18,502 bases of DNA from Chthonomonadales bacterium (GTDB lineage Bacteria; Armatimonadota; Chthonomonadetes; Chthonomonadales; Chthonomonadaceae), in assembly GCA_038217285.1 (NCBI GenBank), contig JBBQPO010000109.1:1-18502 (forward strand), in the 5' to 3' direction. The translations under genes and the position numbers were made by a program. The notes below the pieces were generated by a model that saw nothing but the letters and a program-made list of their open reading frames with translations, did not search any database and was not told the origin of the DNA. This document shows positions 1-18,502 of this stretch, one piece after another; positions within the stretch are counted from its first letter, which is position 1; each line of letters starts with the position of its first letter.

Positions 1-310
1 GGCTGTCGAGGAGGGTATGGCCCCCTTGCTGGAAGTCTTCCTGGACTTTGACCTCGCAGGGTCTTCCCTGGAGCGCGCCGAGTTGGTTGGCGAGTTTGAG
101 GCGATAGGATCGGAACTCGACGCTGACGCACGAGAGGAAGACCCGCATGCTCGGATTTGACTCGTTATCCGGCTCTCCCGCAGGCTGTGACTCGAGCGAG
201 TCAGGTCCGGAGGGTTGCAGTGTGACGGGCAGAGCCGGCTCCGGCAACTGCGGATCGGGAGCAACGGGATCGCCTGTCTGTTTGGAGAAGAGCCGCTTGA
301 ACCAGTTCAT
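1..310 (-). CDS. DUF4062 (TIR-like) domain protein, 5' part only; runs off the left edge of the window
   Basis: Not in the ORF track; translated by hand from ATG at 310 (AGGAG RBS 5 nt upstream): MNWFKRLFSKQTGDPVAPDPQLPEP...NPSMRVFLSCVSVEFRSYRLKLANQLGALQGRPCEVKVQEDFQQGGHTLLDS. The frame is open to the edge. RVFLSCVSxEFxxxRxxL...QEDF matches the start of DUF4062/TIR-like domains, after a Pro-rich linker. Confidence 0.75.
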   Translation of the reverse strand, partial: MNWFKRLFSKQTGDPVAPDPQLPEPALPVTLQPSGPDSLESQPAGEPDNESNPSMRVFLSCVSVEFRSYRLKLANQLGALQGRPCEVKVQEDFQQGGHTLLDS

Positions 311-486: not shown

Positions 487-1554
487 CTAGTTCTTGATCT
501 CCTCGGGAGCCTCAAGCCCGCGCAAGAGTTGTTCCAAATCCTTTGCAAGCTGAGTGAACTTGCCATAATAGAGGCAGCGGTGCGTACTGAGGTCGAAATG
601 GACAAGTTCTCCCTTGCGGGCAAGCAGTATAACCGGTATGCCGCGGCCCCAGGCATAACCAACTTCGAGGTAAACGTTTGGGCGACCCTCCGTGAGATCA
701 GCGATTACGATGAAGGCTGTTTCGATGCCATGTCTGACGCGATGCAGGATGTCGCCTGTGAAATGGGTCTTGTCGACCCTTTCGCAGATGAAACCGCAGT
801 TGCGCACGGCGGGATAGATTCCAAATTCATAGACGTTTTCGAACTCTTCCGAGTAGGGCATGGCCACAAACACACTCTTCTTGCGCGCTACCGCATCTAC
901 CCGTTGTATCTCTTCCATAGACGCTGCGTCCGTCTGTCGTATCCCATGATCTTCCTTCTCCAGTTCCAGTTGGCCGGGATCTGTTGCAGCATGCGTAATC
1001 CCGACATGTTCAGAGTTTGGTATTTCTGCGGGGAGATCCATTTGGGTAAGTACTGACTCCAACGTTCGCTTTGCCCGCTCGTCATTGGTGAGGAATTCTA
1101 TCTTTCCGATATCGGTTGATGACGCTGCAGACAAACCTCTTTGGAATCCACATATCAAGCGTTGGAGGGATTCGCCTTCGTCCAATCCATATCCGCCTCC
1201 GTGGACCGTCGTCGTCAGCACCTTCAGTGGCATCGAGAGACTGGAGAGGATTTCGATGAACCTTTGCGCGAAGCCCTGTATCTCGTCGTAGTCAAATGCA
1301 GTCAAGTCCGGCGTACCGAGGAACATGACCCGGGCGGGAGCGAGCCTGCCTTGCGTCTCAATGATCTTGAAGTCTCCAGGCTTGAGCCTGAGATCCCTCT
1401 CATCGCATAGGCCGGATGAAACAAGCATAGTCATGACTGCCCTGTCGGCACCGTAGAACGATTGCGCATGTTTCAAAAGGAGCAAATCGGACGGCTCCAA
1501 GAGAACATCTCCGAGTCGAACCACATATTCCGGCGTGTTCATAGCTCTATTCAT
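487..1554 (-). CDS. Macro-like N-terminal domain fused to a nucleoside 2-deoxyribosyltransferase/TIR-like C-terminal domain
   Basis: 355 aa ORF; an alternative ATG at 1542 lies 12 nt after GGAGG. The C-terminal VFVAMPY...RVD...IADLT..RPNVYLEVGYAWG..PVILL...FDL is the typical NDT/TIR-like signature with its conserved Glu. The N-terminal VVRLGDVL..SDLLLLKHAQ..GADRAV and TTVHGGGYGLD resemble Macro-fold motifs (less certain). Confidence 0.7.
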   Translation of the reverse strand: MNRAMNTPEYVVRLGDVLLEPSDLLLLKHAQSFYGADRAVMTMLVSSGLCDERDLRLKPGDFKIIETQGRLAPARVMFLGTPDLTAFDYDEIQGFAQRFIEILSSLSMPLKVLTTTVHGGGYGLDEGESLQRLICGFQRGLSAASSTDIGKIEFLTNDERAKRTLESVLTQMDLPAEIPNSEHVGITHAATDPGQLELEKEDHGIRQTDAASMEEIQRVDAVARKKSVFVAMPYSEEFENVYEFGIYPAVRNCGFICERVDKTHFTGDILHRVRHGIETAFIVIADLTEGRPNVYLEVGYAWGRGIPVILLARKGELVHFDLSTHRCLYYGKFTQLAKDLEQLLRGLEAPEEIKN

Positions 1555-1617: not shown

Positions 1618-1911
1618 CTATCGGGTTTCGGGAGGTACGATCCGGTACCCGAGTTTAAGAACCGCCTTTACCGTGCCGAGCGCAGTGATGCGGTCATACT
1701 CCTTTTCACTCTCCGGCAACGCGTCATAGGGTACGAGGCCGGGATGGAGTTTGTGGGTATCGTCCCGCTGCGCGCCATAACGCCATCCCTCGGCGGTACG
1801 CTGCACGGCCCAGAGGTCGTGTATATGTTCCGCGAGGCGTTCGGTCAAGGGCAATAGTTCTTGGGGAATCTCTACGCCATCGGTGAAGATCGGACTGGGT
1901 TCGTAGCTCAT
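1618..1911 (-). CDS. Standalone RyR (ryanodine receptor repeat) domain protein, 97 aa
   Basis: MSYEPSPIFT..VEIP.EL..L.ERLAEHIHDLWA..R..EGWRYG..RDD..KLHP.LVPYD.LPESEKEYDR......GYRI follows the RyR repeat consensus. Start moved to ATG 1911 (AAGGA RBS). Confidence 0.9.
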   Translation of the reverse strand: MSYEPSPIFTDGVEIPQELLPLTERLAEHIHDLWAVQRTAEGWRYGAQRDDTHKLHPGLVPYDALPESEKEYDRITALGTVKAVLKLGYRIVPPETR

Positions 1912-2004
1912 GAGTAATCCTTCTATTTCTCGGCGCGTCCCGTCAGCGGCCGAGATACGGTACGCGTACGCTGTTGGACGTAAGCGCTGCATACCCGGCC
2001 TTTC

Positions 2005-2047: not shown

Positions 2048-2779
2048 TCAGACCAGGGACCATTGTGAACAGGGGTGTCCCTCGGCTCCGAAGAAGAAGC
2101 CGACCGCGTGAGAGATAGGATCGATCACCAGGGCGATCTGCCAGTCATGGAAGAAGACGCCGCGCTGCGTCTCCAAATCGGTGGAGGAGAGAAACACCCC
2201 CATACCAGGGTGGGAATGGTAGGAACCGAGCAAGGTCCATGTCGTCGGCAGAGACTGCAACTGAGGCGTGAGAGCCTGCCACGTCGCAGCGGTATAGGCA
2301 AAGGTAACGGCAGTGCCCTCGCCATCGTGTGCCGGCAGAGCCTCTTCCACGACCACACAGTAGAGATCGAGATCTGCATCGTAGATGGATTCGCCGATCA
2401 GCAGACCGCCGAGTTCTATCCGGGTGTCACTGCGCAGGTGCCTCTGTAACTTTTCGAAGGCAGCCCGACGCACGAGACAGCAAGAGGAGCCGCGCCGCAG
2501 ATCCGGCATGCGCTCCGGCGACAGCGCGCTCAGAAATTCAGAGGCGCGCGCGCGTTGGGGCCGATAGACGTCCTCCTGATCGACCCACTCGATCTCATCG
2601 AGTTCCGGAACGACAGGCGGAGTTTCCAGGCCAGCCTTGCTCTCCCGTTCCAGTCGCTTCCTCAGCACGGACGCAACAAACGCCTCGTCCTCCTGCCGCG
2701 CCAGCAGATCCGGGTCTGCCGCATTCGGTATCGAGGGCACAGCCCGGTCTTCCGTTTTTCTCTTCCAGAAAGGACGCAT
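2048..2779 (-). CDS. JAB/MPN (JAMM) metallo-isopeptidase, deubiquitinase-like, with N-terminal extension
   Basis: ELGGLLIG ... YHSHPGMGVFLSSTD (E...H-x-H-x7-S-x2-D) ... ALVIDP is a complete JAMM motif. The ATG directly abuts the E2 stop codon. Confidence 0.93.
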   Translation of the reverse strand: MRPFWKRKTEDRAVPSIPNAADPDLLARQEDEAFVASVLRKRLERESKAGLETPPVVPELDEIEWVDQEDVYRPQRARASEFLSALSPERMPDLRRGSSCCLVRRAAFEKLQRHLRSDTRIELGGLLIGESIYDADLDLYCVVVEEALPAHDGEGTAVTFAYTAATWQALTPQLQSLPTTWTLLGSYHSHPGMGVFLSSTDLETQRGVFFHDWQIALVIDPISHAVGFFFGAEGHPCSQWSLV

Positions 2780-3382
2780 CTACAGATCCTTCCAGACGAC
2801 GGTGCTGTCCTCCTCCGCCTCATTCCGGGGCGAGAGAAAAGGCAGGTCGTCCAGGAGAGGCGTGAAGGAAGGAAGGTTGGCATCAGGCGCTTTCCGGACG
2901 GGCGGATCGTTGACAAAGGTGCAGTGGTCGGTCGGGAAAAGGAGGCGGTTCTTTTTCGCCCACTCGGCCGCCGCCTCGTTGGCAGGATCCTTGATCGCAA
3001 GATATTCACGCTCGAACTGCAGGAGCGCGCCCAGCCGAAGCGCGAACCGGTCCAAAAATTCGCTCGTCTGCCAGTTTCCCATGCAGACGACCAGGTTCTT
3101 ATAGACGTGAGGATGGTACAAGGGGGTCAGCAGTTGAACCACCGGCGGTGCGATCGGTGCGGGATATTTTGATGGCAGGCGGATAGAGACGCGGTGCATT
3201 TCTCGGTAGACCGGTCGCCCCTTCTCCAGTCGCTCGATGCCCCGACACCGATAGACCAGAACGTACTGATCGATCGGCCGCCCTTTGACCGACTCCATCA
3301 TGAGCGTTCCACCGCTTCCGTGGGCAAGCGCCCGCAGGTGGAGGTAATCTGACTGAAGACGCAGGTCTCGCGCGTTCGCCAT
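2780..3382 (-). CDS. Ubiquitin-conjugating E2 (UBC-fold) enzyme
   Basis: UBC hallmarks: N-terminal RL..D helix, IRLPSKYP...PPVV...TPLYHPHVYKNLVVC (HPx-x7-Cys), W, and DPANEAAAEW. Start is ATG 3382 (GGGGAG RBS) or GTG 3391 overlapping the Ubl stop. Confidence 0.9.
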   Translation of the reverse strand: MANARDLRLQSDYLHLRALAHGSGGTLMMESVKGRPIDQYVLVYRCRGIERLEKGRPVYREMHRVSIRLPSKYPAPIAPPVVQLLTPLYHPHVYKNLVVCMGNWQTSEFLDRFALRLGALLQFEREYLAIKDPANEAAAEWAKKNRLLFPTDHCTFVNDPPVRKAPDANLPSFTPLLDDLPFLSPRNEAEEDSTVVWKDL

Positions 3383-3387
3383 ACCGA

Positions 3388-3651
3388 TCACTCCCCGCCG
3401 TGCGTTGCCAGCGGTTGAATCATCAGGGTGTCGTGGTCGCGCACTCTCTCTTCGGTCAGCATCTCAAAAGGAAGCAACTGCCGGTTCAAAGAGAGGTTCG
3501 TGACGACGTAGTTCGAGCCGAAGAGCATCTTCCAGCGTTTGGTCGAAGCGCGTATCAGGTCCTGCGCGGTCATCGTGCGTGGAAGCACGATCTCCGCTTT
3601 GCGTGTTTTGTCCGCAGTCTGCAAATAGAAAACAACTCGTTCTCCGCTCAT
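3388..3651 (-). CDS. Ubiquitin-like (beta-grasp) modifier protein, 87 aa, C-terminus HGG-E
   Basis: Size and pattern fit Ub/YukD-like folds (beta-beta-helix ... L...EMLTEERVRDHDTLMIQP...GG). It has a di-glycine one residue before the stop and lies between E1 and E2 with 3- and 5-nt gaps. Confidence 0.85.
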   Translation of the reverse strand: MSGERVVFYLQTADKTRKAEIVLPRTMTAQDLIRASTKRWKMLFGSNYVVTNLSLNRQLLPFEMLTEERVRDHDTLMIQPLATHGGE

Positions 3652-3654
3652 GTT

Positions 3655-4818
3655 TCAGCCTTTCCAGCCCTCGCCAAAGAGATCGCCTCCGGACAGTTGG
3701 AGGAAACGCCTGGTCCCCTCCCCTTGAATGCTCACGACGGCGCCGTTCGGAAGCCCCATCCGTGCCAGTGAAACGTCCGCATAGGGTCCTGCGGCGTCCA
3801 GCCAGTTCACGGCCTCCGGTTGGCGACTGCGCGTTTTGCAATCGGGACAGAACGTCCACTCCATACCGCACCGTTCCAACGGCTTCAAAACCGTCTCTAC
3901 CGCGCCACACTCCACGCACCGCATCTGCGTCAGAAGATCGAAGCCCAGTTCGACCGCCCCGCCCGACTCGCCCGCAAGGTCCAGCAAAAGACGGGGCGTT
4001 GCTATCTCTTTTGACTGCTCGATACCCTCGATAGGTTCCCAGGTATCATGGGCCAGGCACTCACTATTTTCCGGCAGGTCGTAAACCCCGAAATGATAGG
4101 GCTTCAGAGTCAGATAGAGCTTCTGAGAGAAGGCCAGCCCCTCTTTTTGCAGTGAGCCGGCGGCATGCAGCAGCAGCAACGCCTCATTGACGAGATACCC
4201 TGCAACGATAGAGGCGACCACGGCGGTCGTCGGCATCTTCTGATCGGCCTCCTCGGCGCGCAGGCCGCCGCAGGCGAATCGCCGGTTGCGCTCCTCCCAC
4301 ATCGCCGCCGACATGGCGCACTCGTAGCAGGCTCCCGATCTGCCGTCAAACAGACTGACCTCCGCAATCGTGGCTTCGATACCGCCGTTCAGCCAGGGAA
4401 CACCCGCCCGTCGGCAAAGGCGATTCAGGGCCAGACGGGCCTGCACACTGTCGAGACAGCCGATGACGACATCCATGTCCCGATAGACGCCAAGACCGAC
4501 ATCGAATTCGAGATCACCGACGAGAGAGCGAACCCGGATGTCAGGATTGATTTCGGCAGCGCGCTCTGCCGCCACCTCTGCCTTCGCCCGCCCGTGGTCT
4601 GCGGCGCGAAACAACACGCTGCGGGTTAAGTTCGATAGCTCGACCGTATCGCTGTCCACAATGACGAGATGTCCGACACCGATGAGCGCCAGATTCTTGA
4701 TGACCTCGTTGCCGATGGCCCCCGCGCCGACCACCATGACACGCGCGTGGTGCAGACGCTCCTGGTCCCACCAGTCGATCAGCCGATGCCGCGTATAACG
4801 ATCCTCTTCGGAATTCAA
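3655..4818 (-). CDS. Ubiquitin-activating E1-like enzyme (ThiF/MoeB/E1 adenylation domain, catalytic Cys, C-terminal Zn-ribbon/ubiquitin-fold-like extension)
   Basis: Motifs DRYTRH, VVGAGAIG, D.DTVELSNLTR, KAE, CLDS..AR, CYEC, downstream FAC (candidate thioester Cys), CLAH, then CVEC...CPDC. Start reassigned to TTG 4818, which overlaps the upstream TGA (TTGA) after a GA-rich RBS; 387 aa. Confidence 0.92.
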   Translation of the reverse strand: MNSEEDRYTRHRLIDWWDQERLHHARVMVVGAGAIGNEVIKNLALIGVGHLVIVDSDTVELSNLTRSVLFRAADHGRAKAEVAAERAAEINPDIRVRSLVGDLEFDVGLGVYRDMDVVIGCLDSVQARLALNRLCRRAGVPWLNGGIEATIAEVSLFDGRSGACYECAMSAAMWEERNRRFACGGLRAEEADQKMPTTAVVASIVAGYLVNEALLLLHAAGSLQKEGLAFSQKLYLTLKPYHFGVYDLPENSECLAHDTWEPIEGIEQSKEIATPRLLLDLAGESGGAVELGFDLLTQMRCVECGAVETVLKPLERCGMEWTFCPDCKTRSRQPEAVNWLDAAGPYADVSLARMGLPNGAVVSIQGEGTRRFLQLSGGDLFGEGWKG

Positions 4819-5159
4819 AGGTGCGTCTCTCTCTCCCGGAAGGGCACCACGGAGCCAGCCTTCCGGCAGTGACAGCAGCGCCCTTTGTCCGTATCCCGAA
4901 GAAAGGCCCAACCTTCGGCGCTATAGGCCGTATTGCAGTTACGGCACAGATAGAGGAAACTGCCTGTTTGCAGCGACTGGCGGGTGACAGGGCAGACCAG
5001 GGCGGTGTCTATGCCGAGCGCGGCAGCCTGGGGCGGACTCAACGAACGAAATTCGACGTTGGGATCGTCCGGCAGTTCGGCAGCATCGCGCGACGATTGC
5101 AGTGTGTTATCACGCAGGAGCCCCATTCTCATCAGCAGTGCTGTCAGTCGTTCCCGCAT
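4815..5159 (-). CDS. Small Cys-rich protein with a degenerate RING-like finger (candidate E3)
   Basis: 114 aa from ATG 5159 (AAGGAGG RBS). Contains CPVT-x12-CRNC-x3-YSAEGW-x10-CCHC. Translationally coupled to E1. Confidence 0.7.
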   Translation of the reverse strand: MRERLTALLMRMGLLRDNTLQSSRDAAELPDDPNVEFRSLSPPQAAALGIDTALVCPVTRQSLQTGSFLYLCRNCNTAYSAEGWAFLRDTDKGRCCHCRKAGSVVPFRERETHL

Positions 5160-5187: not shown

Positions 5188-5526
5188 CTACAGTGCGTCA
5201 TCTCCTCGCTCCTCGGTACGCACACGGACGGCGTCTTCCATTGGCAGCACGAAGATTTTACCGTCGCCCTGTTCGCCTGTATGCGCATGGCGTTCTATCG
5301 TAGTGACGATCTCATCGATGTCTTCGTCACGCGCCACGATCTCGATCTTGATCTTCATAGGCAGTTCGATCGCGTACTCCACGCCCCGAAAACTCTCCCG
5401 ATGACCACGCTGCCGCCCACTGCCCCGCACATCCGACACCGAGAGCCCCGTCACCCCGATCTCCCCCAGCGCAATCTTGACCTCATCCAACTTGAGCGGC
5501 CGAATAATCGCCTCAATCTTCTTCAT
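5188..5526 (-). CDS. glnB: P-II family nitrogen regulatory protein (GlnB/GlnK)
   Basis: Canonical 112 aa: MKKIEAIIRP, GRQ39, RGVEY51, K58, TGEQGDGKIF, RVRT. glnB versus glnK cannot be resolved; no amtB is adjacent. Confidence 0.95.
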   Translation of the reverse strand: MKKIEAIIRPLKLDEVKIALGEIGVTGLSVSDVRGSGRQRGHRESFRGVEYAIELPMKIKIEIVARDEDIDEIVTTIERHAHTGEQGDGKIFVLPMEDAVRVRTEERGDDAL

Positions 5527-5575: not shown

Positions 5576-6526
5576 TTATTGTTCGCGCAGCACCCGCACG
5601 GCGACATCCATTGCGCGGGCAAAAGGGCCTCGGTAGATCCCGCGTATCGGTGGAACGTCCCCATAATCCCGCCCGAAATGGACCTTCACGTAGTTCTGAT
5701 TGGTCAGCAGATTGTTCGTCGGGTCGAAGCCATGCCATTTGCCGTCCGACAGCAGACATTCGACCCAGGCGTGCATGGCGTCTCCGCCGGTGGGACTGGT
5801 GCGAAGTGAGTAGGACGGCTTCTCGTCCACGCTATCCTCCGGTAGTTCCGTGACAGGATAGTCTTCCGCGCGTTCGCCGGTGTAGAGATAGCCGCTGACG
5901 TAGCGCGCAGGAATGTGCTGGCGACGACAGACGGCGAGCATGAGATGGGCGAAGTCCTGACAGACGCCACTTTTCTGTTCAAGCACCTGCTGAATCGAAG
6001 AGTTGACGTTGGTCGCTCCCGGCGCGTAGGCGATCACATGGTAGAGCAGCCGCGTCAGAGCGATCAGAAAGGAGGCGGAACCGACGTCTGCCTGCTTGTG
6101 CGCCACGACCGCGATGCGCTCCGTCTCCGGATGGAGGAGCACCCGTTCGGTCGGAGCCAGATACTCGCCATAGCGCTCCCGAACTGTCGGCTGCCGATAG
6201 AACGCGCTGTCGTCTTCGGTCAGGTTGAGTCCCGCGAACGGGTCGTGGCGATGCGTGACGACCAGCGACTCGGCCATAATCGCCAGTTCGTGGTGCGCAG
6301 AGCGGACGCCGAAGTGGTGGACGCGACCGGTGGGCAGATCGTACTCGAAAACCGGTGTGGACGGCAGGACCGTCAGGCGGAAGTCGAGGCACGTCTGATC
6401 GCCGTCGCTCAAGGGCATCAGTCGAACTTCGTTGTGACTCTCCGTCGCGGGAGTCGTGTAGCTGTATCGGGTCGTATGGTAGAGGCGCAGGCGCACGGTG
6501 GCAGTTTCCCTGTTCCGGAGAGACAC
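5576..6526 (-). CDS. Transglutaminase-like protein (bacterial transglutaminase N-terminal domain plus catalytic core)
   Basis: N-domain H.TRYSY...NEVRL.P; catalytic triad in GVCQDFAH, HAWVE and FDPTN; also ARYVSGYL and GRDYGDV.P. The start may be GTG 6496. Confidence 0.93.
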   Translation of the reverse strand: MSLRNRETATVRLRLYHTTRYSYTTPATESHNEVRLMPLSDGDQTCLDFRLTVLPSTPVFEYDLPTGRVHHFGVRSAHHELAIMAESLVVTHRHDPFAGLNLTEDDSAFYRQPTVRERYGEYLAPTERVLLHPETERIAVVAHKQADVGSASFLIALTRLLYHVIAYAPGATNVNSSIQQVLEQKSGVCQDFAHLMLAVCRRQHIPARYVSGYLYTGERAEDYPVTELPEDSVDEKPSYSLRTSPTGGDAMHAWVECLLSDGKWHGFDPTNNLLTNQNYVKVHFGRDYGDVPPIRGIYRGPFARAMDVAVRVLREQ

Positions 6527-6532
6527 GATCTC

Positions 6533-7564
6533 TCAGTAGGAGAGATAGGTGCGTGTGATCGCTCGGCCGACATCGTCGCAGCGTCCCTGTACGCTGTCCA
6601 GAAACTGATGCAGCCCGCTGCGGATGATCTCGTCGGAGCGTATATAGGTCAGGTCGGCGCGCAGTCTGCCGAGGAGACGTTCCGGATCGGTCGTCGGTTC
6701 GTCGCGCATATTGCCGCTAATGCGCTTCTGGCAGCCCTCGACGCGCCCGATCCCATGCCGCACCGAAGCCGGGAAGGTGGGGTTGAGCACCAGGAAATCG
6801 ACGATGCTGGCTGGCCGGATCCCGTCGTGGTGCGTTTTACGATACATTTCGAAGGCGCTGACCGATTTCAGCACCGCAATCCAGCCGTGCATATCCAGCG
6901 GCCCGCCGACTCCGTAAGGGTTGGGCTGTCGTTCCGCCGACGGCGCATGGTCGGTTTCTGGAATGTCGGTGACGTAGACCGGCAGCAGGTCGTGGTACTT
7001 CACATCCAGTAGACGCGCTGTCTGAATGGCGCGCTCCAAAAAGCGCCCGGTGTCGAGCCAGTCACGGGGTTCGCTCATCAACATCGTGCGATTGAGGATG
7101 CCCTGAAACAGGTGGGAGGCGTTCTTCACGGCTTGAAAGAACTCGTGTGGAGAGCCGGCCAGCACGCGGTCCACGTTCCACTCCCGCAGCTGCAAGTAAA
7201 AGACGTTCAGGCTCTCCCACATCTCCGAGGCGATCTGCTCTCGAATCGAACGGGCATTTTCCCGGGCTCCGGTCCAGACCCGCAAAATCGAACCCGGATT
7301 CTCCATATCGAAAACGAAAAAATGGATTACGTCCCGGTCGTTCTCCGTGGCATAGCGCGCATGATAGTCTTTCGTGCTGCCGGAGATCGCGAGCAGCGAC
7401 GCCCAGCGCATCGGCGTAAACGCGTCCTCTCGATCGAGATCGGCGGCGGGAAGCGTCGTCTCCAGCGCGGCGTGATAGTGAACATCGACCATGCGGGCGG
7501 TCGCTTCGGCGCGTTCGACGTAGCGGCCGATCCAGTAACAGGAGTCGGCATCTCGACTGAGCAT
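6533..7564 (-). CDS. Alpha-E domain protein (DUF403)
   Basis: MLSR.A...YWIGRYVERAE.TAR, ARENARSIRE.I..EMWE and GRFLERA..TARLLDVKY: the repeated ER motifs of alpha-E proteins. The ATG overlaps the upstream TAA. Confidence 0.93.
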   Translation of the reverse strand: MLSRDADSCYWIGRYVERAEATARMVDVHYHAALETTLPAADLDREDAFTPMRWASLLAISGSTKDYHARYATENDRDVIHFFVFDMENPGSILRVWTGARENARSIREQIASEMWESLNVFYLQLREWNVDRVLAGSPHEFFQAVKNASHLFQGILNRTMLMSEPRDWLDTGRFLERAIQTARLLDVKYHDLLPVYVTDIPETDHAPSAERQPNPYGVGGPLDMHGWIAVLKSVSAFEMYRKTHHDGIRPASIVDFLVLNPTFPASVRHGIGRVEGCQKRISGNMRDEPTTDPERLLGRLRADLTYIRSDEIIRSGLHQFLDSVQGRCDDVGRAITRTYLSY

Positions 7565-9144
7565 TACGAGCCTCCTTCCGGTTCGGTCGTCGGAGCCGGT
7601 TTGCCGAAGCTCTGCGTCATGCCGCCCAGCGACTGCGCCATTCCCGTTCCGGTCATCATCTGACTCATGCCATTCCTCTGCTGGCTAAGGCTCGCATTGT
7701 CGTGCGCGAGCACCCAGGTGTCTTTGCTGCCGCCCCCCTGCGAGGAGTTGACGACATAAGAGCCTTTGCGCAACGCGACCCGTGTCAGGGCGCCGGGAAT
7801 GATGGTGATCTCCTTCTGTCCATACAGAATATAGGGTCGCAGATCGATATGTCGCCCCTCCATGTTGGTTTCGTCGATAAAAGAGGGCGCTTGCGACAGG
7901 GAGATGAGCGGTTGGGCAATGTAGTTGCGCGGATTCGCCTTTATCTTCTCGGCGAACTCGGCGCGTTCGGCCTGGCTCGCCTGCGGCCCCATCAGCATCC
8001 CGTAGCCGCCCGACTCGTTGGCGGCTTTGACCACCAGTTTGTCGAGGTTGGCCAGAATATACTGCCTCTGCGTCGGCTCCGAGGCGAGAAAAGTTTCGAC
8101 ATTATCGAGGATCGGCTTCTCGCCCAGATAGTACTCGATGATGCGCGGCACGTAGGCGTAGACGACCTTGTCGTCCGCAACGCCCGTGCCGATGGAGTTC
8201 GCGAGGGCGACGTTGCCACTGCGGTAGGCATTGACCAGTCCCGCCGCGCCGAGCGCCGAGTCGCCGCGGAACACCAGGGGGTCGAGAAAGTCGTCGTCCA
8301 CCCGGCGATAGATCACATCGACCCGTTCCGGTCCTTTCGTGGTCTTCATGTAGACGATATTGTTGTCTACAAACAGGTCGCGCCCCTGCACCAGTTCGAT
8401 GCCGAGCTGTTGGGCGAGAAAGGCGTGTTCGAAATAGGCGCTATTGTAGACGCCGGGGGTGAGCAGCACCACATTGGGAGAGTCCCGGCGGCCCTCCGGG
8501 GCGAGCTCGCGCAGATTGTTCAACAGTTGCGTCGTATAGTGATCGACGGGTCGCACGGGCAGGTCACGGAACATCTGCGGCAGCACGCGCGTCAGGATGA
8601 TCCGGTTTTCCAGCACATAGGAGACTCCGGACGGCGTACGCAGGTTGTCTTCGAGGACTTTGTACGTTCCGTGCTGGTCACGGATCAGGTCGCTGCCGCA
8701 GATATGCACATAGATACCGCCGGGCGGATCGGCGCCCAGGAACTCGCGCCGGAAGTAGGCGGCGTTCACAATGAGGTCACGCGGAATGACACGGTCCGCC
8801 AGGATCTTCTGGTCGTGGTAGACATCGTGAATGAACAGGTTCAGGGCGGTCAGACGCTGCTTGAGGCCGCGCTCGATCAGTTCCCATTCGTCGGCCGGAA
8901 TGATCCTCGGAATCAGGTCGAAGGGGAAGGGCTTTTCCACCCCCTGCTCGCCGCCATAGACCGCGAACGTGATGCCCTGATTAATGAGAGTCAGCTCGGC
9001 CAACTGGCATCGACGGCGGAAGTCTTCGAGAGACAGGCCGGTGAGACGCTGGAACAGTTTCCAGTAGTGGGGGCGTGGTTGGCCGTCCGGCTGAAACATT
9101 TCATCGTAGAAGCCATTGGTCTGATAGTTGTCGAATAGTGGCAT
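7564..9144 (-). CDS. Circularly permuted type 2 ATP-grasp peptide ligase (DUF404/DUF407 type)
   Basis: YDEM, GITF.VY, PFDLIPR, LEDNLRTPSGVSY, NSAYFEH, RVDVIYRR, GVADDK, SGGYGM, DLRP, VVNSSQGGGSKDTWV. Start reassigned to ATG 9144 behind AGGAGG; 526 aa. Confidence 0.95.
   Translation of the reverse strand: MPLFDNYQTNGFYDEMFQPDGQPRPHYWKLFQRLTGLSLEDFRRRCQLAELTLINQGITFAVYGGEQGVEKPFPFDLIPRIIPADEWELIERGLKQRLTALNLFIHDVYHDQKILADRVIPRDLIVNAAYFRREFLGADPPGGIYVHICGSDLIRDQHGTYKVLEDNLRTPSGVSYVLENRIILTRVLPQMFRDLPVRPVDHYTTQLLNNLRELAPEGRRDSPNVVLLTPGVYNSAYFEHAFLAQQLGIELVQGRDLFVDNNIVYMKTTKGPERVDVIYRRVDDDFLDPLVFRGDSALGAAGLVNAYRSGNVALANSIGTGVADDKVVYAYVPRIIEYYLGEKPILDNVETFLASEPTQRQYILANLDKLVVKAANESGGYGMLMGPQASQAERAEFAEKIKANPRNYIAQPLISLSQAPSFIDETNMEGRHIDLRPYILYGQKEITIIPGALTRVALRKGSYVVNSSQGGGSKDTWVLAHDNASLSQQRNGMSQMMTGTGMAQSLGGMTQSFGKPAPTTEPEGGS
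7612..7671 (-). repeat. Three G-M-x-Q coding repeats in the ATP-grasp C-terminal tail
   Basis: GGC ATG AGT CAG, GGA ATG GCG CAG and GGC ATG ACG CAG within ...NGMSQMMTGTGMAQSLGGMTQSFG... Confidence 0.7.
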
Positions 9145-9326
9145 CGAAAGAGACGCACCTCCTGCGGGTTTCGACTCCGCCTTGGAGCCGTGCAGACTTT
9201 TCACCGAGGGGCACCATCGCCTGGACCGGGCGCGAAGGCCGGTAAACCGCTTCGCAAAAGGGGAAAAACAACGATGCACCGACAGCGACTGCAAAATGCA
9301 GCAGGGATTACCGCTATCGTTCGCCT

Positions 9327-9356
9327 ATTATAACCCGTCTCGCACTATAAAGTAAA
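9327..9356 (-). promoter_or_regulatory. Putative sigma70 promoter for the long minus-strand operon
   Basis: Minus strand reads TTTACT-N18-TATAAT in the AT-rich divergent intergenic region, about 180 nt upstream of the ATP-grasp start. Confidence 0.5.
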
Positions 9357-9469
9357 GATGCCGTCAATGTAAAATAGACTCGACAGAGCATCGCAATCTC
9401 CCCTCGCTTTCCTGTAAAGCCGAGACGGGAGAGAATAGAAACGCCGACCATAGGTCGCAGGAGAGCCGA

Positions 9470-10549
9470 ATGAGTGAGCTGAATTTCGATTTGTTGAAAC
9501 GAATCTGCGAGACACCTGGCATTCCAAGCCGGGAAGAGGCCATCCGCAAGCTGGTCATTGCGGAGCTGAGACCGCTGTGCGACACGCTGGAGGTCGATGT
9601 GATGGGCAACGTGATCGCGTTCAAGAAGGGCGCGAGTGATGGCCCGCGCGTCATGATCGCGGCACACCTCGACGAGATCGGTTTCATGGTGAAGCATATC
9701 GACGATCGGGGATTTATACGGCTTCTGCCGGTCGGCGGCTGGGACCCACGCGCCATGGTGGCGCAGCGTGTGCTGGTACACGGCTTCGCGGGCCAGACGC
9801 TCCGCGGCACCCTGATGCCGGGGATCAAACCGACCCATCTTTTGACGACGGAGGAGGCGAACAAATCCCCGAAGATCGAGGAGTTTTTCGTCGATCTCGG
9901 ACTCTCCGGCGAAAAGGTCAAGTCGCTCGTCGAGTTGGGCGACATGGTCACGATGGACCGAACGGCGGAGCGGATAGGCGATATGGTCGTGAGCAAGACC
10001 CTCGATGACCGCCTTAGCGTCTTCATTCTGATCGAAACGCTCCGCAAACTCCAGAATACGCCGACGAAAGCCCATATCCTCGCCGTGGCCACTACGCAGG
10101 AAGAGGTCGGCCTGCGCGGCGCGACGACGGCAGCCTACGCCCTACAGCCCGACATCGGCATTGCGCTCGATGTGACGCTGGCGGTCGATCTCCCCGGCGT
10201 TCCCGAGCAGGATCAGGTGACGCGGCTTGGAAACGGCACGGCGATCAAGATCGTCGACTCCTCCCTGCTCTGTCATCCCAAACTCGTCCGCCACTTCCGG
10301 GACGTCGCCGAGGCGAAGGGCATCAAATATCAGTTGGAGATTCTTCCACGGGGCGGCACCGACGCGGGCGGAATCCAGCGCAGCCGCGGCGGCGTTCCCT
10401 CCTTCACGCTCTCCATTCCGACGCGTTACATCCACACCGTCAACGAGATGGCCCATGTCGACGACATCCAGGCCTCCATCGATCTGCTGGCCGCCTACCT
10501 GCCCGAAGCCCACACCCGCCCCTACGGCTACGCCGAAGAGGTCGAGTAG
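9470..10549 (+). CDS. M42 family metallo-aminopeptidase (TET/FrvX-like)
   Basis: Metal and catalytic motifs AAHLDEIG, KTLDDR, QEEVGLRGA, IALDVT, GGTDAG, PTRYIHT; AGGAG RBS. Confidence 0.95.
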   Translation: MSELNFDLLKRICETPGIPSREEAIRKLVIAELRPLCDTLEVDVMGNVIAFKKGASDGPRVMIAAHLDEIGFMVKHIDDRGFIRLLPVGGWDPRAMVAQRVLVHGFAGQTLRGTLMPGIKPTHLLTTEEANKSPKIEEFFVDLGLSGEKVKSLVELGDMVTMDRTAERIGDMVVSKTLDDRLSVFILIETLRKLQNTPTKAHILAVATTQEEVGLRGATTAAYALQPDIGIALDVTLAVDLPGVPEQDQVTRLGNGTAIKIVDSSLLCHPKLVRHFRDVAEAKGIKYQLEILPRGGTDAGGIQRSRGGVPSFTLSIPTRYIHTVNEMAHVDDIQASIDLLAAYLPEAHTRPYGYAEEVE

Positions 10550-10628
10550 CGAATCTTTCCCGCCGCTCCGGTTTCTCCCCAGGAACCAGGGCGCGCTGGG
10601 AGACCCCATTTTGAAAGGAGAGGCATTC

Positions 10629-11363
10629 ATGGAACGATCATGGCGAATTATGCTGGGATTTTATACCGTCTGGCTGGGAACCTTTTTTTTGACCGCGTCT
10701 TACACGGCATGGGCAGGTCCCGGCGGCCTGATCAAGGACGCTGTCATGACCCCGATAGGCCGCATTCTCTTCCTTATCCTGGCGGTTCTGCTCTCCCCAT
10801 TCATCGTCTACTATATGATCAAACGCGCGATACAGATCCGGCACACACGGGAGGATCTGGTCCGACTGGCCGCTCTCTATCCGCAGTATCGATGGCTGGA
10901 CGTAAAGGATCGTGCGACAGCGGCATTCCAGTGGGTCTGGTCCGCGTGGGGCAAACAGAAGATGGAGTCGGCCTCCGCCTTCACAACCTCCTGGTATATG
11001 CAGAACCAGCAGATGCTGCTGGACGACTGGTCGGACCGAGGACTGGAAAACGTCTGCCAACTCAAGTCTATCAAGCGAATCGAGCCTCTCTTCGTCCAGC
11101 ACAACGAGGCAGGTGACGGCCAGGGTTCGCGGTTGACTCTGGTCATTACGGCCAGCGTGGTGGACTACCTGCGGGACAAATCGACCGGGAAGATTGTCGA
11201 GGGAGACAAGAAGATCGACGACTTACAGACTGTCTGGACGTTCGTCTGGCAGGAGAACGGTTGGCTCCTGAATCTCATTGAGCCGAGTACGACGGAGTGG
11301 TCCTATCTGACGATGCCAAACGAACTGCCCGCCTCGCTCACGCCACAATCGTCACGGGCCTGA
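10629..11363 (+). CDS. Membrane-anchored Tim44-like domain protein
   Basis: Start reassigned to ATG 10629 (AAAGGAG RBS); 244 aa. A signal-like segment (AWA/GPGG) and a hydrophobic helix precede a domain with AF..V..AW, DY.....GKIVEG and WTF....GWLL..I, typical of Tim44-like domains. Confidence 0.75.
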   Translation: MERSWRIMLGFYTVWLGTFFLTASYTAWAGPGGLIKDAVMTPIGRILFLILAVLLSPFIVYYMIKRAIQIRHTREDLVRLAALYPQYRWLDVKDRATAAFQWVWSAWGKQKMESASAFTTSWYMQNQQMLLDDWSDRGLENVCQLKSIKRIEPLFVQHNEAGDGQGSRLTLVITASVVDYLRDKSTGKIVEGDKKIDDLQTVWTFVWQENGWLLNLIEPSTTEWSYLTMPNELPASLTPQSSRA

Positions 11364-11505
11364 ACCTCAGTGGTAACTATTCACCCAGGCCTTTCGGTGA
11401 AACTCTTTGAGGTATAGCAGTGTGCCACCAGGGCGTATGCGCGAACTTGCCAACCTCGACACACCGTGAGAATATTGCGGCGACCGTTGCGACGAACCAG
11501 ACGAC

Positions 11506-11544
11506 CGACGCTATTCGGCCCCGTGAAAAAACCGAATAGCATCG
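11506..11544. terminator. Inverted repeat between convergent transcription units (possible terminator)
   Basis: GCTATTCGG-N13-CCGAATAGC perfect 9-bp stem, extendable by 3 bp past one mismatch. No strong U tract. Confidence 0.4.
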
Positions 11545-11587
11545 TCAATCTATGAGGAGAGCGAACGAAGTCAATGTCGCGCCAGTG

Positions 11588-11810
11588 TTACTCGTTCGGA
11601 GTGGCGATGTAGCCGTGCGTAATACCGCTGGCATCCGTATACGTATCCATGTGCATGCCCATCTTTGCCATCGCGTACCCCGGCAATATCGCCATCATTG
11701 TTGATGCCGAGAATGCCGGTGAAGTAGATGGCTCCTGGTGCGTCAACCGACCTGAAGTGATAACGGGCTTGCCTTTGAGCGATCGCGTGGCAGGGTAGGA
11801 ACGGTGACAC
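11588..11810 (-). pseudogene. Internally deleted remnant of an extracellular beta-repeat (HAF-repeat-like) protein gene
   Basis: One frame gives YHFRSVDAPGAIYFTGILGINNDGDIAG..DGKDGHAHGYV (first repeat). A shifted frame continues YTDASGITHGYIATPNE* (typical last repeat). The two are joined out of frame at about 11641. Confidence 0.65.
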
Positions 11811-11824
11811 GGCGCAAACGTTTC

Positions 11825-11840
11825 TGTGATTTACATCACG
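11825..11840. promoter_or_regulatory. CRP/FNR-family-like binding site
   Basis: TGTGA-TTTACA-TCACG, a 9/10 match to TGTGA-N6-TCACA, in an AT-rich intergenic patch. Confidence 0.5.
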
Positions 11841-11909
11841 CTTGTACTTTTTTGGGTAGCGCGGCGTTTTTTCGGAGCCTCCGCCTCGACGACGGTTTCG
11901 GCGACAGCC

Positions 11910-12488
11910 TCAGTTGCCTCCGCTTCCGGCGCGATTTTCAACTGTAGAGGGTGTCTCGGTAAGTGACTCCATCGTTTTGGCCTCATAGAAACGGCCGGAC
12001 TTCTTAATCGACGTCAATATCTCGGAGTATTCGCGCTTATAATTTGCCCCGATCCAGACTGGATTGGCCACGAGGCCATCACAGACATACACGCCCCGAA
12101 AGCGAACGACCCCTGTTCGCAGCACGACTCCTGTTCCTCCGACGATGTCACGCAGACGCTCCGTGAGGCCAAGAACGGCATAAGCCTCCTTACCGTCCGG
12201 CTCAATAAAAATTGAGTATTTCGTTGTGTCGCGCAGGAAGATCCATTGCCGCACCTTGAGGGATCGAACGGCGTCAAGCACATCTTCCGGCAGGGGGCGA
12301 CCTTGTCCTTCAAGACTTAAGGCCGCGAGATCGAGGAGTAATGGATTGGCGACGACGGCGTCGCGCGCGGCGCTCAGCATCTCGAGAAGTTCCATTTTGC
12401 GCGCACCATCCGAAAGGATATGCACTTCGGCAAGCAGACTCGTATAGCTATTTATGAACTGTTTCGCGTCTTTTGGATTAATGACCAT
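11910..12488 (-). CDS. Hypothetical protein, 192 aa
   Basis: Start reassigned to ATG 12488 because the upstream ORF extension overlaps the SDR. Globular composition (WIFLRDTTKYSIFI, YAVLGLT, FRGVYVCDG, IGANYK). No function recognised. Confidence 0.7.
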   Translation of the reverse strand: MVINPKDAKQFINSYTSLLAEVHILSDGARKMELLEMLSAARDAVVANPLLLDLAALSLEGQGRPLPEDVLDAVRSLKVRQWIFLRDTTKYSIFIEPDGKEAYAVLGLTERLRDIVGGTGVVLRTGVVRFRGVYVCDGLVANPVWIGANYKREYSEILTSIKKSGRFYEAKTMESLTETPSTVENRAGSGGN

Positions 12489-12520
12489 GTGCGTACTTTC
12501 CAACGTCTGTGAGCAGGCTC

Positions 12521-13297
12521 CTAGAGTGAGCGAATGGTGAGGCCGCCGTCGGCGATCAGGGTTTGGCCGGTGATGTAGGAGGCGGCGGGCAGGCAGAGGA
12601 AGGCGACGAGAGCGCCGATCTCTTCCGGACGGCCCGGCCGCTTCAGAGGCACACGGGAATCGAGGTTGCGCCGAAAGTCGGGGTTGTTCATCAGCGGCTC
12701 GGTCAGCGGCGTCTCGATGAAACCGGGCGCGACGGTGTTGACGAGAATGCCGTCCGGTGCCCATTCCAGCGCGAGGCCCCGCGTGATCTGCGCCATCGCC
12801 GCCTTGGTGGCGGCGTAAGGAATCCCGGTCGGAATCGCCCGCTCGCCCGCAATGGATCCAATGAACACGACACGGCCTTGCCCGCTCTGTTTCAGAGAGG
12901 GATGGCAGGCGCGAACGAGCGCGAACGCGGAGAAGAGATTCGTCTGGAAGATATGGGCGATCTCCGCCTCTGTGTAGTCGAGCGCTTGCTTCCGAATGTT
13001 CGTGCCGACGTTGCTGACCAGGAGATCGAGACCGCCGAGATCCTCGTTGATCGCTGCAAGCATTGCCGCCTGCCCCGCGTCAGTCGCGACATCCGCCGAC
13101 AGGGTGCGGATCGGCAGCCCTGCTGCGCGGAACTCCTGCGCGCTCGCCTCCAGATCGGCGGCGTTACGCGCGACCGACAGCACCTCTGCTCCGAAATGGA
13201 GCAGTTCCCGCACTGTCGCGAGCCCGATCCCTTTCGAACCCCCTGTCACCAGCGCCTTGCGCCCCTTTAGCTGCCAGCGCGCGCCTACATTTTCCAA
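12521..13297 (-). CDS. SDR family oxidoreductase, tropinone reductase-like
   Basis: RWQLKGRKALVTGGSKGIG, NVGTNIRK, YAATK, VAPGFIETP, FLCLPAASYITGQ; TTG start after AAGGAG. Confidence 0.93.
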   Translation of the reverse strand: MENVGARWQLKGRKALVTGGSKGIGLATVRELLHFGAEVLSVARNAADLEASAQEFRAAGLPIRTLSADVATDAGQAAMLAAINEDLGGLDLLVSNVGTNIRKQALDYTEAEIAHIFQTNLFSAFALVRACHPSLKQSGQGRVVFIGSIAGERAIPTGIPYAATKAAMAQITRGLALEWAPDGILVNTVAPGFIETPLTEPLMNNPDFRRNLDSRVPLKRPGRPEEIGALVAFLCLPAASYITGQTLIADGGLTIRSL

Positions 13298-13335
13298 GCG
13301 ACTTTCTCCTTACCGTCGATAGTGACGTACTGTTC

Positions 13336-14901: not shown

Positions 14902-14980
14902 CGGCCTCGTCTCCCTAACTTCATAGATCAAGCTTGGCGTCGGTTTTCCACAGCGCCCACTGGAATTCCTGCGTCGCGAC

Positions 14981-15010
14981 TTGACAATGACAGATACTGA
15001 ACGATATAAT
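14981..15010 (+). promoter_or_regulatory. Consensus sigma70 promoter for lacI-family/GH unit
   Basis: TTGACA-N18-TATAAT with both hexamers perfect. Confidence 0.85.
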
Positions 15011-15018
15011 ACCGTCAG

Positions 15019-15044
15019 TGCGCAATCGTATGCGCAAATTGCGC
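15019..15044. promoter_or_regulatory. Putative LacI-family operator(s)
   Basis: TGCGCAAT-CG-TATGCGCA is an imperfect palindrome with central CG just downstream of the -10. It overlaps a second palindrome, GCGCAA-A-TTGCGC. Confidence 0.65.
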
Positions 15045-15087
15045 CTATGATTTTTTAACGCCCATCCAGCGAGAGATTGGAGAGCGG

Positions 15088-16077: not shown

Positions 16078-16139
16078 ACGAACGCTGTATTCTCTCCCGA
16101 TTCCGGGAGACACCACGATGGAGAGATCAGGAGCATGAT

Positions 16140-18005: not shown

Positions 18006-18052
18006 TCGGGCGGACGCGCCGTTCAACAAAGAAAACCGCCTTGTGAAACAAA

Positions 18053-18091
18053 TACGTTAATTCTGACGTACGTTAATATTGACGTACGTCA
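18053..18091. repeat. 28-bp near-perfect palindrome within a 16-bp-period tandem repeat (probable operator)
   Basis: TGACGTACGTTAATATTGACGTACGTCA (18064-18091; one T/G mismatch pair). Units: TACGTTAATTCTGACG / TACGTTAATATTGACG / TACGTCA. Confidence 0.8.
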
Positions 18092-18121
18092 TTTTCAACG
18101 TAGACAGGAGCGGAGAGAACG

Positions 18122-18502
18122 ATGAAGACACAGCAAGCAAATCCCGGCGGTATCCTTGCGCCTGATGAAGTGGTCGGACGCGACATTTTGGTAGCGCGCC
18201 TTTGGAAGATTCTGGAGCGACGCAGTCTCTACATCACGGCGGAACGGCGCATGGGCAAGACGTCTGTCGTGCGCGAAAAAATGGGAAATGCTCCCCCTAC
18301 AGGCTGGACCCTCCTCTATCTCGACGTCTCTAAAGCCGTGACGCCGCTCCAGTTTATCGACGCATTGCTGCATACCGGCCAGGAGCATCTGAACGCTGGA
18401 GCGAAGGCGAAATTTGCCTTCCACAAATTGACAGCCAAACTGACCGGGTTAGACGTCAAGGCAGGGATTGGTGTCAAACTTCCCGACCATCTTGCCCCGG
18501 AC
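18122..18502 (+). CDS. P-loop ATPase (archaeal-type ATPase/STAND-like), 5' part only
   Basis: Not in the ORF track. ATG 18122 after AGGAG/GGAG: MKTQQANPGGILAPDEVVGRDILVARLWKILERRSLYITAERRMGKTSVV...LLYLDV. Has the xGR motif and Walker A variant AERRMGKTS; open to the window edge. Confidence 0.85.
   Translation, partial: MKTQQANPGGILAPDEVVGRDILVARLWKILERRSLYITAERRMGKTSVVREKMGNAPPTGWTLLYLDVSKAVTPLQFIDALLHTGQEHLNAGAKAKFAFHKLTAKLTGLDVKAGIGVKLPDHLAPD

Follow-up and report, generated by a model that had tools for sequence, protein, structure and literature searches.

A predicted ubiquitin-like conjugation cassette with a single-zinc RING-like protein in a Chthonomonadales bacterium

Contig JBBQPO010000109.1 of a Chthonomonadales bacterium (assembly GCA_038217285.1), whose full 18,502 nucleotides (nt) are referred to here as the window, carries five consecutive open reading frames (ORFs) on the minus strand at 2048-5159. 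In order, they encode a RING-like protein, an activating enzyme (E1), a ubiquitin-like protein (Ubl), a conjugating enzyme (E2), and a JAB peptidase. Their sequences, predicted folds, and likeness to known enzymes suggest that this cassette probably encodes a thioester-based, eukaryote-like Ubl conjugation cascade. Its E1, E2, and JAB are closer to eukaryotic UBA7/UBA1, UBC enzymes, and Rpn11/CSN5, respectively, than to MoeB or ThiF. Among relatives drawn from four bacterial groups, the catalytic residues of the three enzymes do not vary. With three Pfam families above their gathering cut-offs and a gene order that is kept across phyla, the cassette is far beyond what chance would produce. A eukaryote-like pathway with separate E1 and E2 enzymes and a candidate ligase (E3) had been proposed in an initial annotation of the window, and that proposal is supported by family and PDB matches, predicted folds, a predicted protein interface, and conservation of the module.

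The proposed pathway, all of whose steps draw on sequence, predicted folds, and homology, would begin with the JAB trimming the one- or two-residue tail of the 87-amino acid (aa) Ubl precursor, baring Gly85 (or Gly86). The E1 would adenylate the exposed glycine and then hold the Ubl on Cys183 of its crossover loop, from which the Ubl would be handed to Cys100 of the UBC-fold E2. The RING-like protein would dock on helix 1 and loops 4 and 7 of the E2 through its CPVTR loop, central helix, and C-terminal zinc knuckle, and this binding would promote discharge of the Ubl onto substrate lysines. The JAB could also reverse the resulting mark.

All cassette coordinates (Table 1) were verified on the sequence, and the coupling described in the initial annotation, with junctions of -4, 3, 5, and 0 nt, was confirmed. 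Starts were compared with homologous loci (L numbers), 32 of which were collected by scanning one genome per species with an E2 profile. The RING-like gene begins with an ATG at 5159, preceded by aaggaggg, and ends with a stop at 4817-4815, which shares 4 nt with the TTG start of the E1 gene at 4818 (TTGA). The only alternative in-frame E1 start is TTG 4911. The start at 4818 is supported by the family-invariant residues R7 and R10, which come right after it, and by homologous loci, in which the E1 gene begins in or just past the RING-gene stop. A start within the 4-nt overlap is also seen in L001 (GTG) and L019 (ATG), and the RING-to-E1 junction is tight in all nine loci examined. The E1 stop at 3655 is followed by a 3-nt gap and the Ubl ATG at 3651. 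After the Ubl stop at 3388, the E2 could start at ATG 3382, leaving a 5-nt gap, or at GTG 3391, within a GTGA overlap; the ATG is favored because most E2 homologues are 196-200 aa long. The TAG of the E2 gene at 2780 directly abuts the JAB ATG at 2779.

Table 1. Coordinates of the cassette genes and their neighbors in the window
Feature	Position	Strand	Details
RING-like protein, candidate E3 adaptor	4815-5159	-	114 aa
E1-like Ubl-activating enzyme	3655-4818	-	387 aa from TTG 4818; Pfam ThiF
Ubiquitin-like modifier precursor	3388-3651	-	87 aa, ending ...THGG-E
UBC-fold E2 conjugating enzyme	2780-3382	-	200 aa from ATG 3382; Pfam UQ_con
JAB/JAMM metallopeptidase	2048-2779	-	243 aa; Pfam Prok-JAB + JAB
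PII (GlnB-type) signal protein	5188-5526	-	Pfam P-II 1.5e-30; 28 nt upstream of RING-like gene
Transglutaminase-like protein	5576-6526	-	Pfam Transglut_core 7.5e-20
Alpha-E protein	6533-7564	-	Pfam Alpha-E 3.6e-92
Circularly permuted ATP-grasp protein	7564-9294	-	Pfam CP_ATPgrasp_2 5e-166
RyR-domain protein	1618-1992	-	1.9e-30; downstream of cassette
Protein with TIR-like / nucleoside 2-deoxyribosyltransferase-like C-terminus	487-1554	-	355 aa; PADLOC TIR effector 1.8e-13; nearest Atlas cluster 0.98
Partial ORF	2-310	-	no family match

Enzymes and modifier of the cassette

Profile searches place the E1, E2, and JAB above their Pfam cut-offs and leave the Ubl and the RING-like protein of the window without a match; for these two, structure prediction returned a SUMO/ubiquitin-like beta-grasp and a RING/U-box-like fold, respectively. 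The E1 (Pfam ThiF, 1.3e-52) contains a single ThiF stretch and is composed of one adenylation domain, a crossover loop bearing Cys183, and a C-terminal four-Cys module (C301, C304, C324, and C327) followed by a tail. The GxGxxG motif, CxxC motif, and downstream Cys of the initial annotation correspond to GAGAIG (G31..G36), C164-x2-C167, and C183. G31, G33, G36, D123, C164, C167, and C183 are invariant in 23 aligned E1s, and C254 and the four cysteines of the module are present in 22 of the 23. The best PDB relatives are UBA7 (8.5e-34) and UBA1 (4e-28), with MoeB and ThiF behind at about 1.5e-21; within UBA7 and UBA1, it is the active adenylation domains that come nearest to the E1 among solved structures. 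Its 24 matches to NCBIfam equivalog models all lie under the cut-off, the best being TIGR02356 (137.2 versus 275.25).

The E2 matches Pfam UQ_con (8.8e-8; 32.3 bits versus a cut-off of 27), and its PDB matches are eukaryotic UBC enzymes, beginning at 3.7e-4. Several Chthonomonadaceae proteins among its 83 homologues are named ubiquitin-conjugating enzyme E2. The HPx-x7-C motif reported earlier is found as H90-P-H-x7-C100, with the catalytic C100 lying within HPHVYKNLVVC, and P91, H92, V93, and C100 are invariant, with at most one exception, in 33 sequences. The C-terminal tail of about 45 residues is poorly conserved and ends in an invariant Trp (W197, ...VVWKDL).

The JAB matches Pfam Prok-JAB (2e-8) and JAB (3e-5), both beyond their cut-offs. 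In the PDB it is nearest to Rpn11 (3.7e-10) and to the Rpn11-like chain 6fjv (4e-10), with CSN5 next; the sequence of the 6fjv chain also occurs in the Caldiarchaeum entry 6fno (CsRpn11). A full JAMM motif, as previously described, is present as E122 and H188-S-H-x7-S198-x2-D201, and E122, H188, H190, S198, and D201 are invariant, with at most one exception, in 27 sequences. The JAB is likely the Ubl-processing and deconjugating enzyme. The protein also has an N-terminal extension of about 100 residues with an invariant W65. A metagenome-assembled genome (MAG) labeled Cyanobacteria encodes a 417-aa JAB (L019:6632-7885) with a C-terminal CxxCxxCC domain (PF03692, 9.5e-6).

The Ubl was modeled with AlphaFold2 (AF2) from an alignment of 24 sequences, made up of 8 of 31 close homologues and 16 sequences from related loci. 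The model has a mean predicted local distance difference test (pLDDT) score of 80.1 and a beta-beta-alpha-beta-beta-beta order, consistent with a beta-grasp fold. Foldseek returned 301 PDB matches for it at E<=1e-3, the top ones being SUMO, ubiquitin, ISG15, and NEDD8. The modifier had been described as bearing a GG, which holds for the window's own sequence; as a family signature it does not, since G85 alone is invariant (24 of 24 rows) and position 86 varies. As judged from the alignment, the conserved signature is thus one C-terminal Gly and not a di-Gly. The tails that follow range from 0 to 14 residues, and this variability implies a processing peptidase, most obviously the JAB.

The RING-like protein and its predicted docking on the E2

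Six cysteines fall within the last 60 residues of the RING-like protein. In its AF2 model, residues 50-110 have pLDDT values of 80-95 and form the predicted zinc-finger domain, whereas the N-terminal approximately 50 residues are of low confidence. The top of the Foldseek list consists entirely of RING, U-box, or SP-RING structures and includes RING1B/Bmi1/PCGF5, U-box proteins, TRIM, Rad18, RNF20, TRAF6, and the SP-RING of Nse2. In an alignment of 49 family members, only C72, C75, C95, and C98 are invariant; C56, P57, T59, R60, S80, G83, W84, F86, G93, and C96 are nearly so, and no conserved His is found. The fold is RING-like, but the eight-ligand RING pattern C-X2-C-X11-C-X2-C-X4-H-X2-C-X10-C-X2-C is absent. 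The initial description of a Cys-rich RING-like protein therefore stands as to its cysteines and its fold and falls short of a full RING, because a single four-Cys site is conserved. From its sequence and model, the protein reads as a RING/U-box-type domain that retains the second zinc site only, that is, as a predicted single-zinc, U-box/SP-RING-like variant. SP-RING and Rtf2 domains bind one zinc, and SP-RINGs keep the second zinc site only.

Each of the 21 close homologues of the RING-like protein is unnamed or annotated as "hypothetical", and a profile search of 1.84 billion representatives yielded 73 relatives at E<=1e-3. Many relatives are 200-250 aa long with the domain at the C-terminus, and some carry an N-terminal SWIM finger. 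Weak matches link the relatives to Rtf2-RING (12 of 49; best 1.1e-5) and to Prok-RING_1 (PF14446; 11 of 49 at E<=1, best 1.7e-4). The best Prok-RING_1 relative, the L002 protein, scores 16.5 bits against a gathering cut-off of 29.1, and the window's own protein has no match to this family at E<=0.01. In a language-model comparison, clusters of Prok-RING_1 and archaeal zf-RING_2 come nearest; their scores of 0.80-0.87 lie below 0.9 and serve as a lead only. The NOSIP match of the family profile to PDB sequences falls at the CPVTR motif. PDB matches to PRDM9 (RING-like protein) and to Aart/PRDM9 (family profile) were rejected as C2H2-linker look-alikes. Long forms of 223-257 aa with an N-terminal CxC...CxH region are encoded at L013:5546-6301, L014:5354-6106, L015:5871-6542, L017:5516-6289, and L018:5714-6403, and the L015 form reaches the Pfam SWIM cut-off (22.2 bits versus 19.6). 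This region may serve the E3 as a module for binding substrates or nucleic acids.

The predicted complex of E2(1-165) with RING-like(48-114) has an interface score (ipSAE) of 0.76 (runs of 0.76, 0.78, and 0.75), whereas the best of three controls gave 0.01. As a rough guide, since the present prediction used custom alignments, the 0.76 mark is reached by 58 of 80 solved complexes and by 2 of 110 mismatched pairs. The runs share at least 94% of their contacts, and the partner pLDDT is 80. Residues 1-15, 72-77, and 105-109 of the E2 are predicted to contact residues 57-61, 77-91, and 94-99 of the RING-like protein. On the E2 side, these segments map to helix 1, loop 4 (72-77), and loop 7 (105-109), which together form the classical E2-RING surface. 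On the other side, the most conserved residues of the RING-like protein (CPVTR, W84, F86, C96, and R99) sit in or beside the predicted interface. R99, directly after the last Cys, occupies what we take to be the place of the RING "linchpin" Arg/Lys. Because RING-E2 complexes have already been solved, the favorable docking may reflect likeness to them and is not proof of binding.

Relation to known conjugation systems

The closest counterpart is the operon of Caldiarchaeum subterraneum, which encodes ubiquitin, E1, E2, a small RING finger protein (srfp), and Rpn11 (Nunoura 2011, PMC3082918; Hennell James 2017, PMC5654768). As described in excerpts of the latter paper, the archaeal E1/E2/RING cascade was reconstituted in vitro, and the small RING partner was needed for substrate modification. 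In the published excerpts, the archaeal operon also encodes the five functions in a compact cluster, with a pro-Ubl bearing a tail, an Rpn11-like JAMM peptidase, and separate Cys-based E1 and E2 enzymes. Where a Caldiarchaeum-type E1 carries a C-terminal ubiquitin-fold domain, the window's E1 has its conserved four-Cys module and a tail, which may include such a domain. The window's E1 is likewise stand-alone, with an adenylation domain and a catalytic Cys; its E2 has the UBC match, an HPN-type motif with His in place of Asn, and a catalytic Cys; and its JAB is an Rpn11-like JAMM peptidase encoded beside the other genes, matching the CsRpn11 chain at 4e-10. For the Ubl, the model and alignment give a beta-grasp, a C-terminal Gly, and a tail, with cleavage itself putative; the model matches Caldiarchaeum ubiquitin (CsUb) with a query-normalized TM-score (TMq) of 0.77.

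The two clusters also differ. The host is archaeal in one case and bacterial in the other. Gene order differs as well: in the window it is RING-E1-Ubl-E2-JAB, with all five genes on one strand, whereas the archaeal Rpn11 gene is divergent. CsUb is more than 30% identical to eukaryotic ubiquitin, whereas Pfam and PDB sequence searches with the window's Ubl revealed no similarity to it. All eight ligands of the motif are present in the archaeal srfp, as opposed to four invariant cysteines in the RING-like protein.

Within bacteria, papers citing Burroughs, Iyer, and Aravind (2011) credit that work with rare RING E3s in operons of this type and speak of "some examples of complete operons" (excerpts of PMC5654768 and PMC10557695). 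The statement of the initial annotation that RING-containing versions are known mainly from archaea and from predictions in a few bacteria is borne out by these papers, to the extent of those excerpts. Its further suggestion of an undescribed system fails, since the kind has already been predicted in bacteria and its archaeal counterpart reconstituted. The cassette is a well-preserved member of this known, predicted kind, already reconstituted from one archaeon. The predicted bacterial RING operons are those of Prok-RING_1, which relatives of the window's protein match weakly and the protein itself not at all. In a passage of one review, bacterial RING domains are said to lack two zinc-ligand pairs and to retain the central-hairpin and C-terminal pairs (PMC11354881), an account with which the conserved Cys pattern of the RING-like protein agrees; Pisano 2018, given as the review's source, does not contain that statement. 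SP-RING (Nse2/PIAS), U-box, and Rtf2/NOSIP-type domains resemble the protein in that its model aligns with Nse2 SP-RING and U-box structures, but these families are eukaryotic, and the resemblance lies in structure, sequence support being marginal.

Among bacterial antiphage systems, Bil (BilABCD) is similar in its separate eukaryote-like E1, E2, Ubl, and JAB-type deubiquitinase, as well as in its thioester chemistry and lysine isopeptide products. The account of Bil in the excerpts of PMC11601596 differs in having no E3, whereas a RING-like gene is present and co-conserved here, and in an E1 of IAD-AAD-CYS architecture (inactive and active adenylation domains and a CYS domain) rather than a single ThiF stretch. 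The Bil E2 has a CEHH motif, according to part of PMC11354881, whereas in the window's E2 the residues after C100 are MGNWQTSEF, which lack this Glu/His pattern. No Bil-type model was matched with PADLOC, although the presence of Bil models in the 2023 library was not verified. Bub (6E/DUF6527) also encodes a Ubl, E1, E2, and peptidase together. As portrayed in parts of PMC11601596, it fuses the Ubl to the E2 or the E2 to the E1, uses a DUF6527 serine protease, and forms oxyester intermediates on Tyr/Ser, with no catalytic Cys; compared with Bub types I and II, the window has separate genes, invariant C183 and C100, and no DUF6527 Pfam match. The Cap2/Cap3 pair of the type II cyclic-oligonucleotide-based antiphage signaling system (CBASS) shares an E1-type adenylation domain and a JAB peptidase, and partial PADLOC matches were obtained to its E1-E2 and JAB models. 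However, Cap2 is an E2-E1 fusion that acts on a CD-NTase, without a Ubl or RING; the PADLOC E1-E2 matches cover the adenylation part only (residues ~6-150), and no CD-NTase gene is found in the window. Identity with Bil, Bub, or CBASS was rejected because their models and defining features are unmatched in PADLOC, Pfam, and the published descriptions.

In excerpts of PMC10557695 and PMC11601596, the bacterial ubiquitin-like conjugation shown by experiment comprises only systems without an E3 (Bil, Bub, and CBASS Cap2), and no experimental study of a bacterial E1/E2/RING operon was found in the literature searched, in which the only reconstituted E1/E2/RING cascade is archaeal. A survey had reported a complete ubiquitin toolkit in no bacterial genome (PMC4327156), a claim against which the 17 complete loci found here argue. 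The compact, conserved cassette, with its predicted E2-RING interface, allows RING-type E3 catalysis in bacteria to be tested and is ready material for a first biochemical test of a bacterial RING-type cascade. It also bears on what a one-zinc RING requires and on the direction in which such operons passed among bacteria, archaea, and the stem of the eukaryotes.

Distribution, neighborhood, and possible roles

The 32 loci comprise 18 from Chthonomonadales, other Armatimonadota, or untitled sources, 5 from Chloroflexota, 7 from Betaproteobacteria, 1 from the MAG labeled Cyanobacteria, and 1 labeled "bacterium", and span four bacterial groups. All five genes occur together in 17 loci, in the order RING-E1-Ubl-E2-JAB in 14 and E1-Ubl-E2-JAB-RING in 3, the latter all Chloroflexota. 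In nine further loci, the contig breaks off on the side where the gene is missing. The remaining six (L005, L009-L012, and L016) have adequate flanks and hold partial sets. L009, L010, and L011 have Ubl-E2 after an ApbE gene, L005 has E1-Ubl-E2, and L012 and L016 have E2-JAB, with a Ubl in L016; all six are from Chthonomonadales or Armatimonadota.

One E2 match was obtained in plasmid records, on the mobilizable plasmid pCRI9333.03 of Crinalium epipsammum PCC 9333 (NC_019754.1, L033 38825-42302). This related cassette encodes, in order, a ThiF E1, two small hypothetical proteins, a "ubiquitin-conjugating enzyme E2", and a Mov34/MPN protein. Its E1, E2, and JAB match those of the window at 4e-81, 3e-21, and 7e-33. 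Unlike the window's cassette, it is plasmid-borne and has two Ubl genes, both of which match the Ubl profile (~2e-8) and one of which ends in ...AEGGY, and the six annotated genes tested include no RING-domain match.

Upstream of the cassette in the window lie a PII gene and a trio of ATP-grasp, Alpha-E, and transglutaminase-like genes, with gaps of -1, 6, and 49 nt from the ATP-grasp gene down to PII. This block precedes the cassette in 4 of the 32 loci (L001, L002, L015, and L018). Two promoter-like sites are found at 9373-9327 (-), upstream of the ATP-grasp gene. Terminator-like sites are not above chance in the window (6 found versus 7.6 expected), and two of them, inside the E1 and JAB genes, were disregarded. 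The trio may be co-transcribed with the cassette, and PII, judged from gene order, is a conserved neighbor and at most a candidate member. According to parts of PMC5666114, the same trio represents the usual operon partners of Anbu, and in Pseudomonas putida nitrogen limitation raises Anbu expression. The window itself holds no Anbu gene; an ORF at 9314-10075 (-) was rejected as a candidate because it has no Pfam match and overlaps the opposite-strand M42 peptidase gene. In all three Chloroflexota loci with the corresponding flank, the next gene after RING, on the same strand, encodes a ClpB-like double AAA+ ATPase (L020:10281-12137, L023:10128-12074, and L025:6407-8302; AAA, AAA_2, and ClpB_D2-small). 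The RING-like proteins of these loci are 300-341 aa long, with the domain in mid-protein.

Our best guess as to role, held with low confidence, is that the cassette is chromosomal, passes down with its lineage, and regulates protein fate (turnover or unfolding), as opposed to being a dedicated antiphage island. It may, in this lineage, be tied to nitrogen or energy status via the adjacent PII gene. A more specific version, which we consider doubtful, is that the Chthonomonadales cassette is a housekeeping "ubiquitin" pathway, co-transcribed with PII and the trio, that marks proteins for unfolding or turnover, with the ClpB-like ATPase as tag reader and unfoldase. If true, it would be a bacterial analogue of ubiquitin-dependent proteolysis with a single-zinc RING as E3. 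In any case, concrete, testable ideas on function come from the association with PII, with the Anbu-operon trio, and with a Clp-type ATPase.

The same chemistry might instead serve an antiphage or conflict system like Bil, Bub, or type II CBASS, in which phage or host proteins are tagged on infection. As presented in excerpts of PMC10557695 and PMC11601596, all characterized bacterial ubiquitin-like conjugation operons act in phage defense, and the uncharacterized RING-containing families are predicted to do likewise. The distribution of the family can also be read in this way, and equally argues against a housekeeping role, as it is patchy over distant phyla and four bacterial groups and includes a relative on a mobilizable plasmid; no E2 match, however, was found in 50,697 phage records. 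The genes that come next on the same strand in the window encode the RyR-domain protein and the 355-aa protein with its TIR-like / nucleoside 2-deoxyribosyltransferase-like C-terminus, the latter a further point against housekeeping, but neither has a counterpart in any of the 32 loci. Together with the partial ORF, they may form a separate conflict module. Elsewhere, the loci are flanked mainly by housekeeping genes whose synteny follows the sublineage (DAGK/YegS, alanine racemase, DAHP synthase, APS kinase, and tRNA synthetase), with transposase, integrase, RHS, and Gp49-like genes only occasional. Among the Pfam matches of the flanking genes, there is no CapW- or CapH/CapP-like regulator, and PADLOC yields only the partial, generic E1-E2 and JAB matches, with none for the Ubl, E2, or RING-like protein. 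We regard an antiphage role as unlikely and keep regulation of protein fate as the preferred role.

Several observations weigh against a complete conjugation cascade with an E3, whatever its role. The Ubl of the window matches no Pfam or NCBIfam family and no PDB sequence, with no ubiquitin or Ubl chain retrieved even at E<=10, and the RING-like protein has no match in Pfam, NCBIfam, or PADLOC. For the latter, one RING zinc site is missing, the Foldseek E-values are weak (best 2.3e-3, with none at 1e-3), and the only RING/U-box-type PDB sequences found with the family profile are NOSIP (0.0022) and NOT4 (0.076). The E2 motif is HPH instead of HPN, with His as its third residue. Finally, the six partial sets and the RING-less Crinalium cassette indicate that the E3 may be dispensable.

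This last point bears on the possibility that the small Cys-rich protein is not an E3 but a zinc-ribbon or treble-clef accessory (a substrate, a regulator, or a cofactor of the E1 or JAB), with the E2 selecting targets directly. Direct target choice by the E2 has been proposed for Bil, which works without an E3 (excerpts of PMC11601596), and the window's protein, with one conserved zinc site, no family match, and weak structural E-values, could be accommodated in such a scheme. Its top structural matches, however, are consistently RING, U-box, or SP-RING domains, and the predicted interface falls on exactly the E2 surfaces that RINGs use, with a score of 0.76 versus 0.01 for controls. The most conserved residues lie in or beside that interface, and the gene stays beside the E1 or JAB gene in 17 of the 32 loci. 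An accessory role is thus quite improbable, and the protein is better read as a candidate E3. The remaining alternative, a sulfur-carrier system in which the E1-like enzyme adenylates a beta-grasp protein to form a thiocarboxylate, as in ThiF-ThiS and MoeB-MoaD, is very improbable despite the ThiF family membership of the E1, its partial matches to the ThiF, MoeB, and SAMP-E1 NCBIfam models, and the C-terminal Gly of the Ubl, given that those matches score far under the cut-off (ThiF, 137 versus 275), MoeB and ThiF are more distant from the E1 than UBA7/UBA1 are, the E1 is co-conserved with a RING-like protein, a JAB, and an E2 whose Cys is invariant, the Ubl model is best matched by SUMO and ubiquitin, and no rhodanese, MoaE, ThiG, or similar gene occurs among the Pfam-searched neighbors in the window and the flanks of the other loci.

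The rest of the window, from 9470 to 18502, resembles ordinary chromosome. It encodes an M42 aminopeptidase (9470-10549 +), a Tim44-like domain protein, a short-chain dehydrogenase, a PQQ/BamB-like beta-propeller protein, a LacI-family regulator, and a GH2-like glycosidase, along with long antisense ORFs that match no family (e.g., 15837-18029 -).

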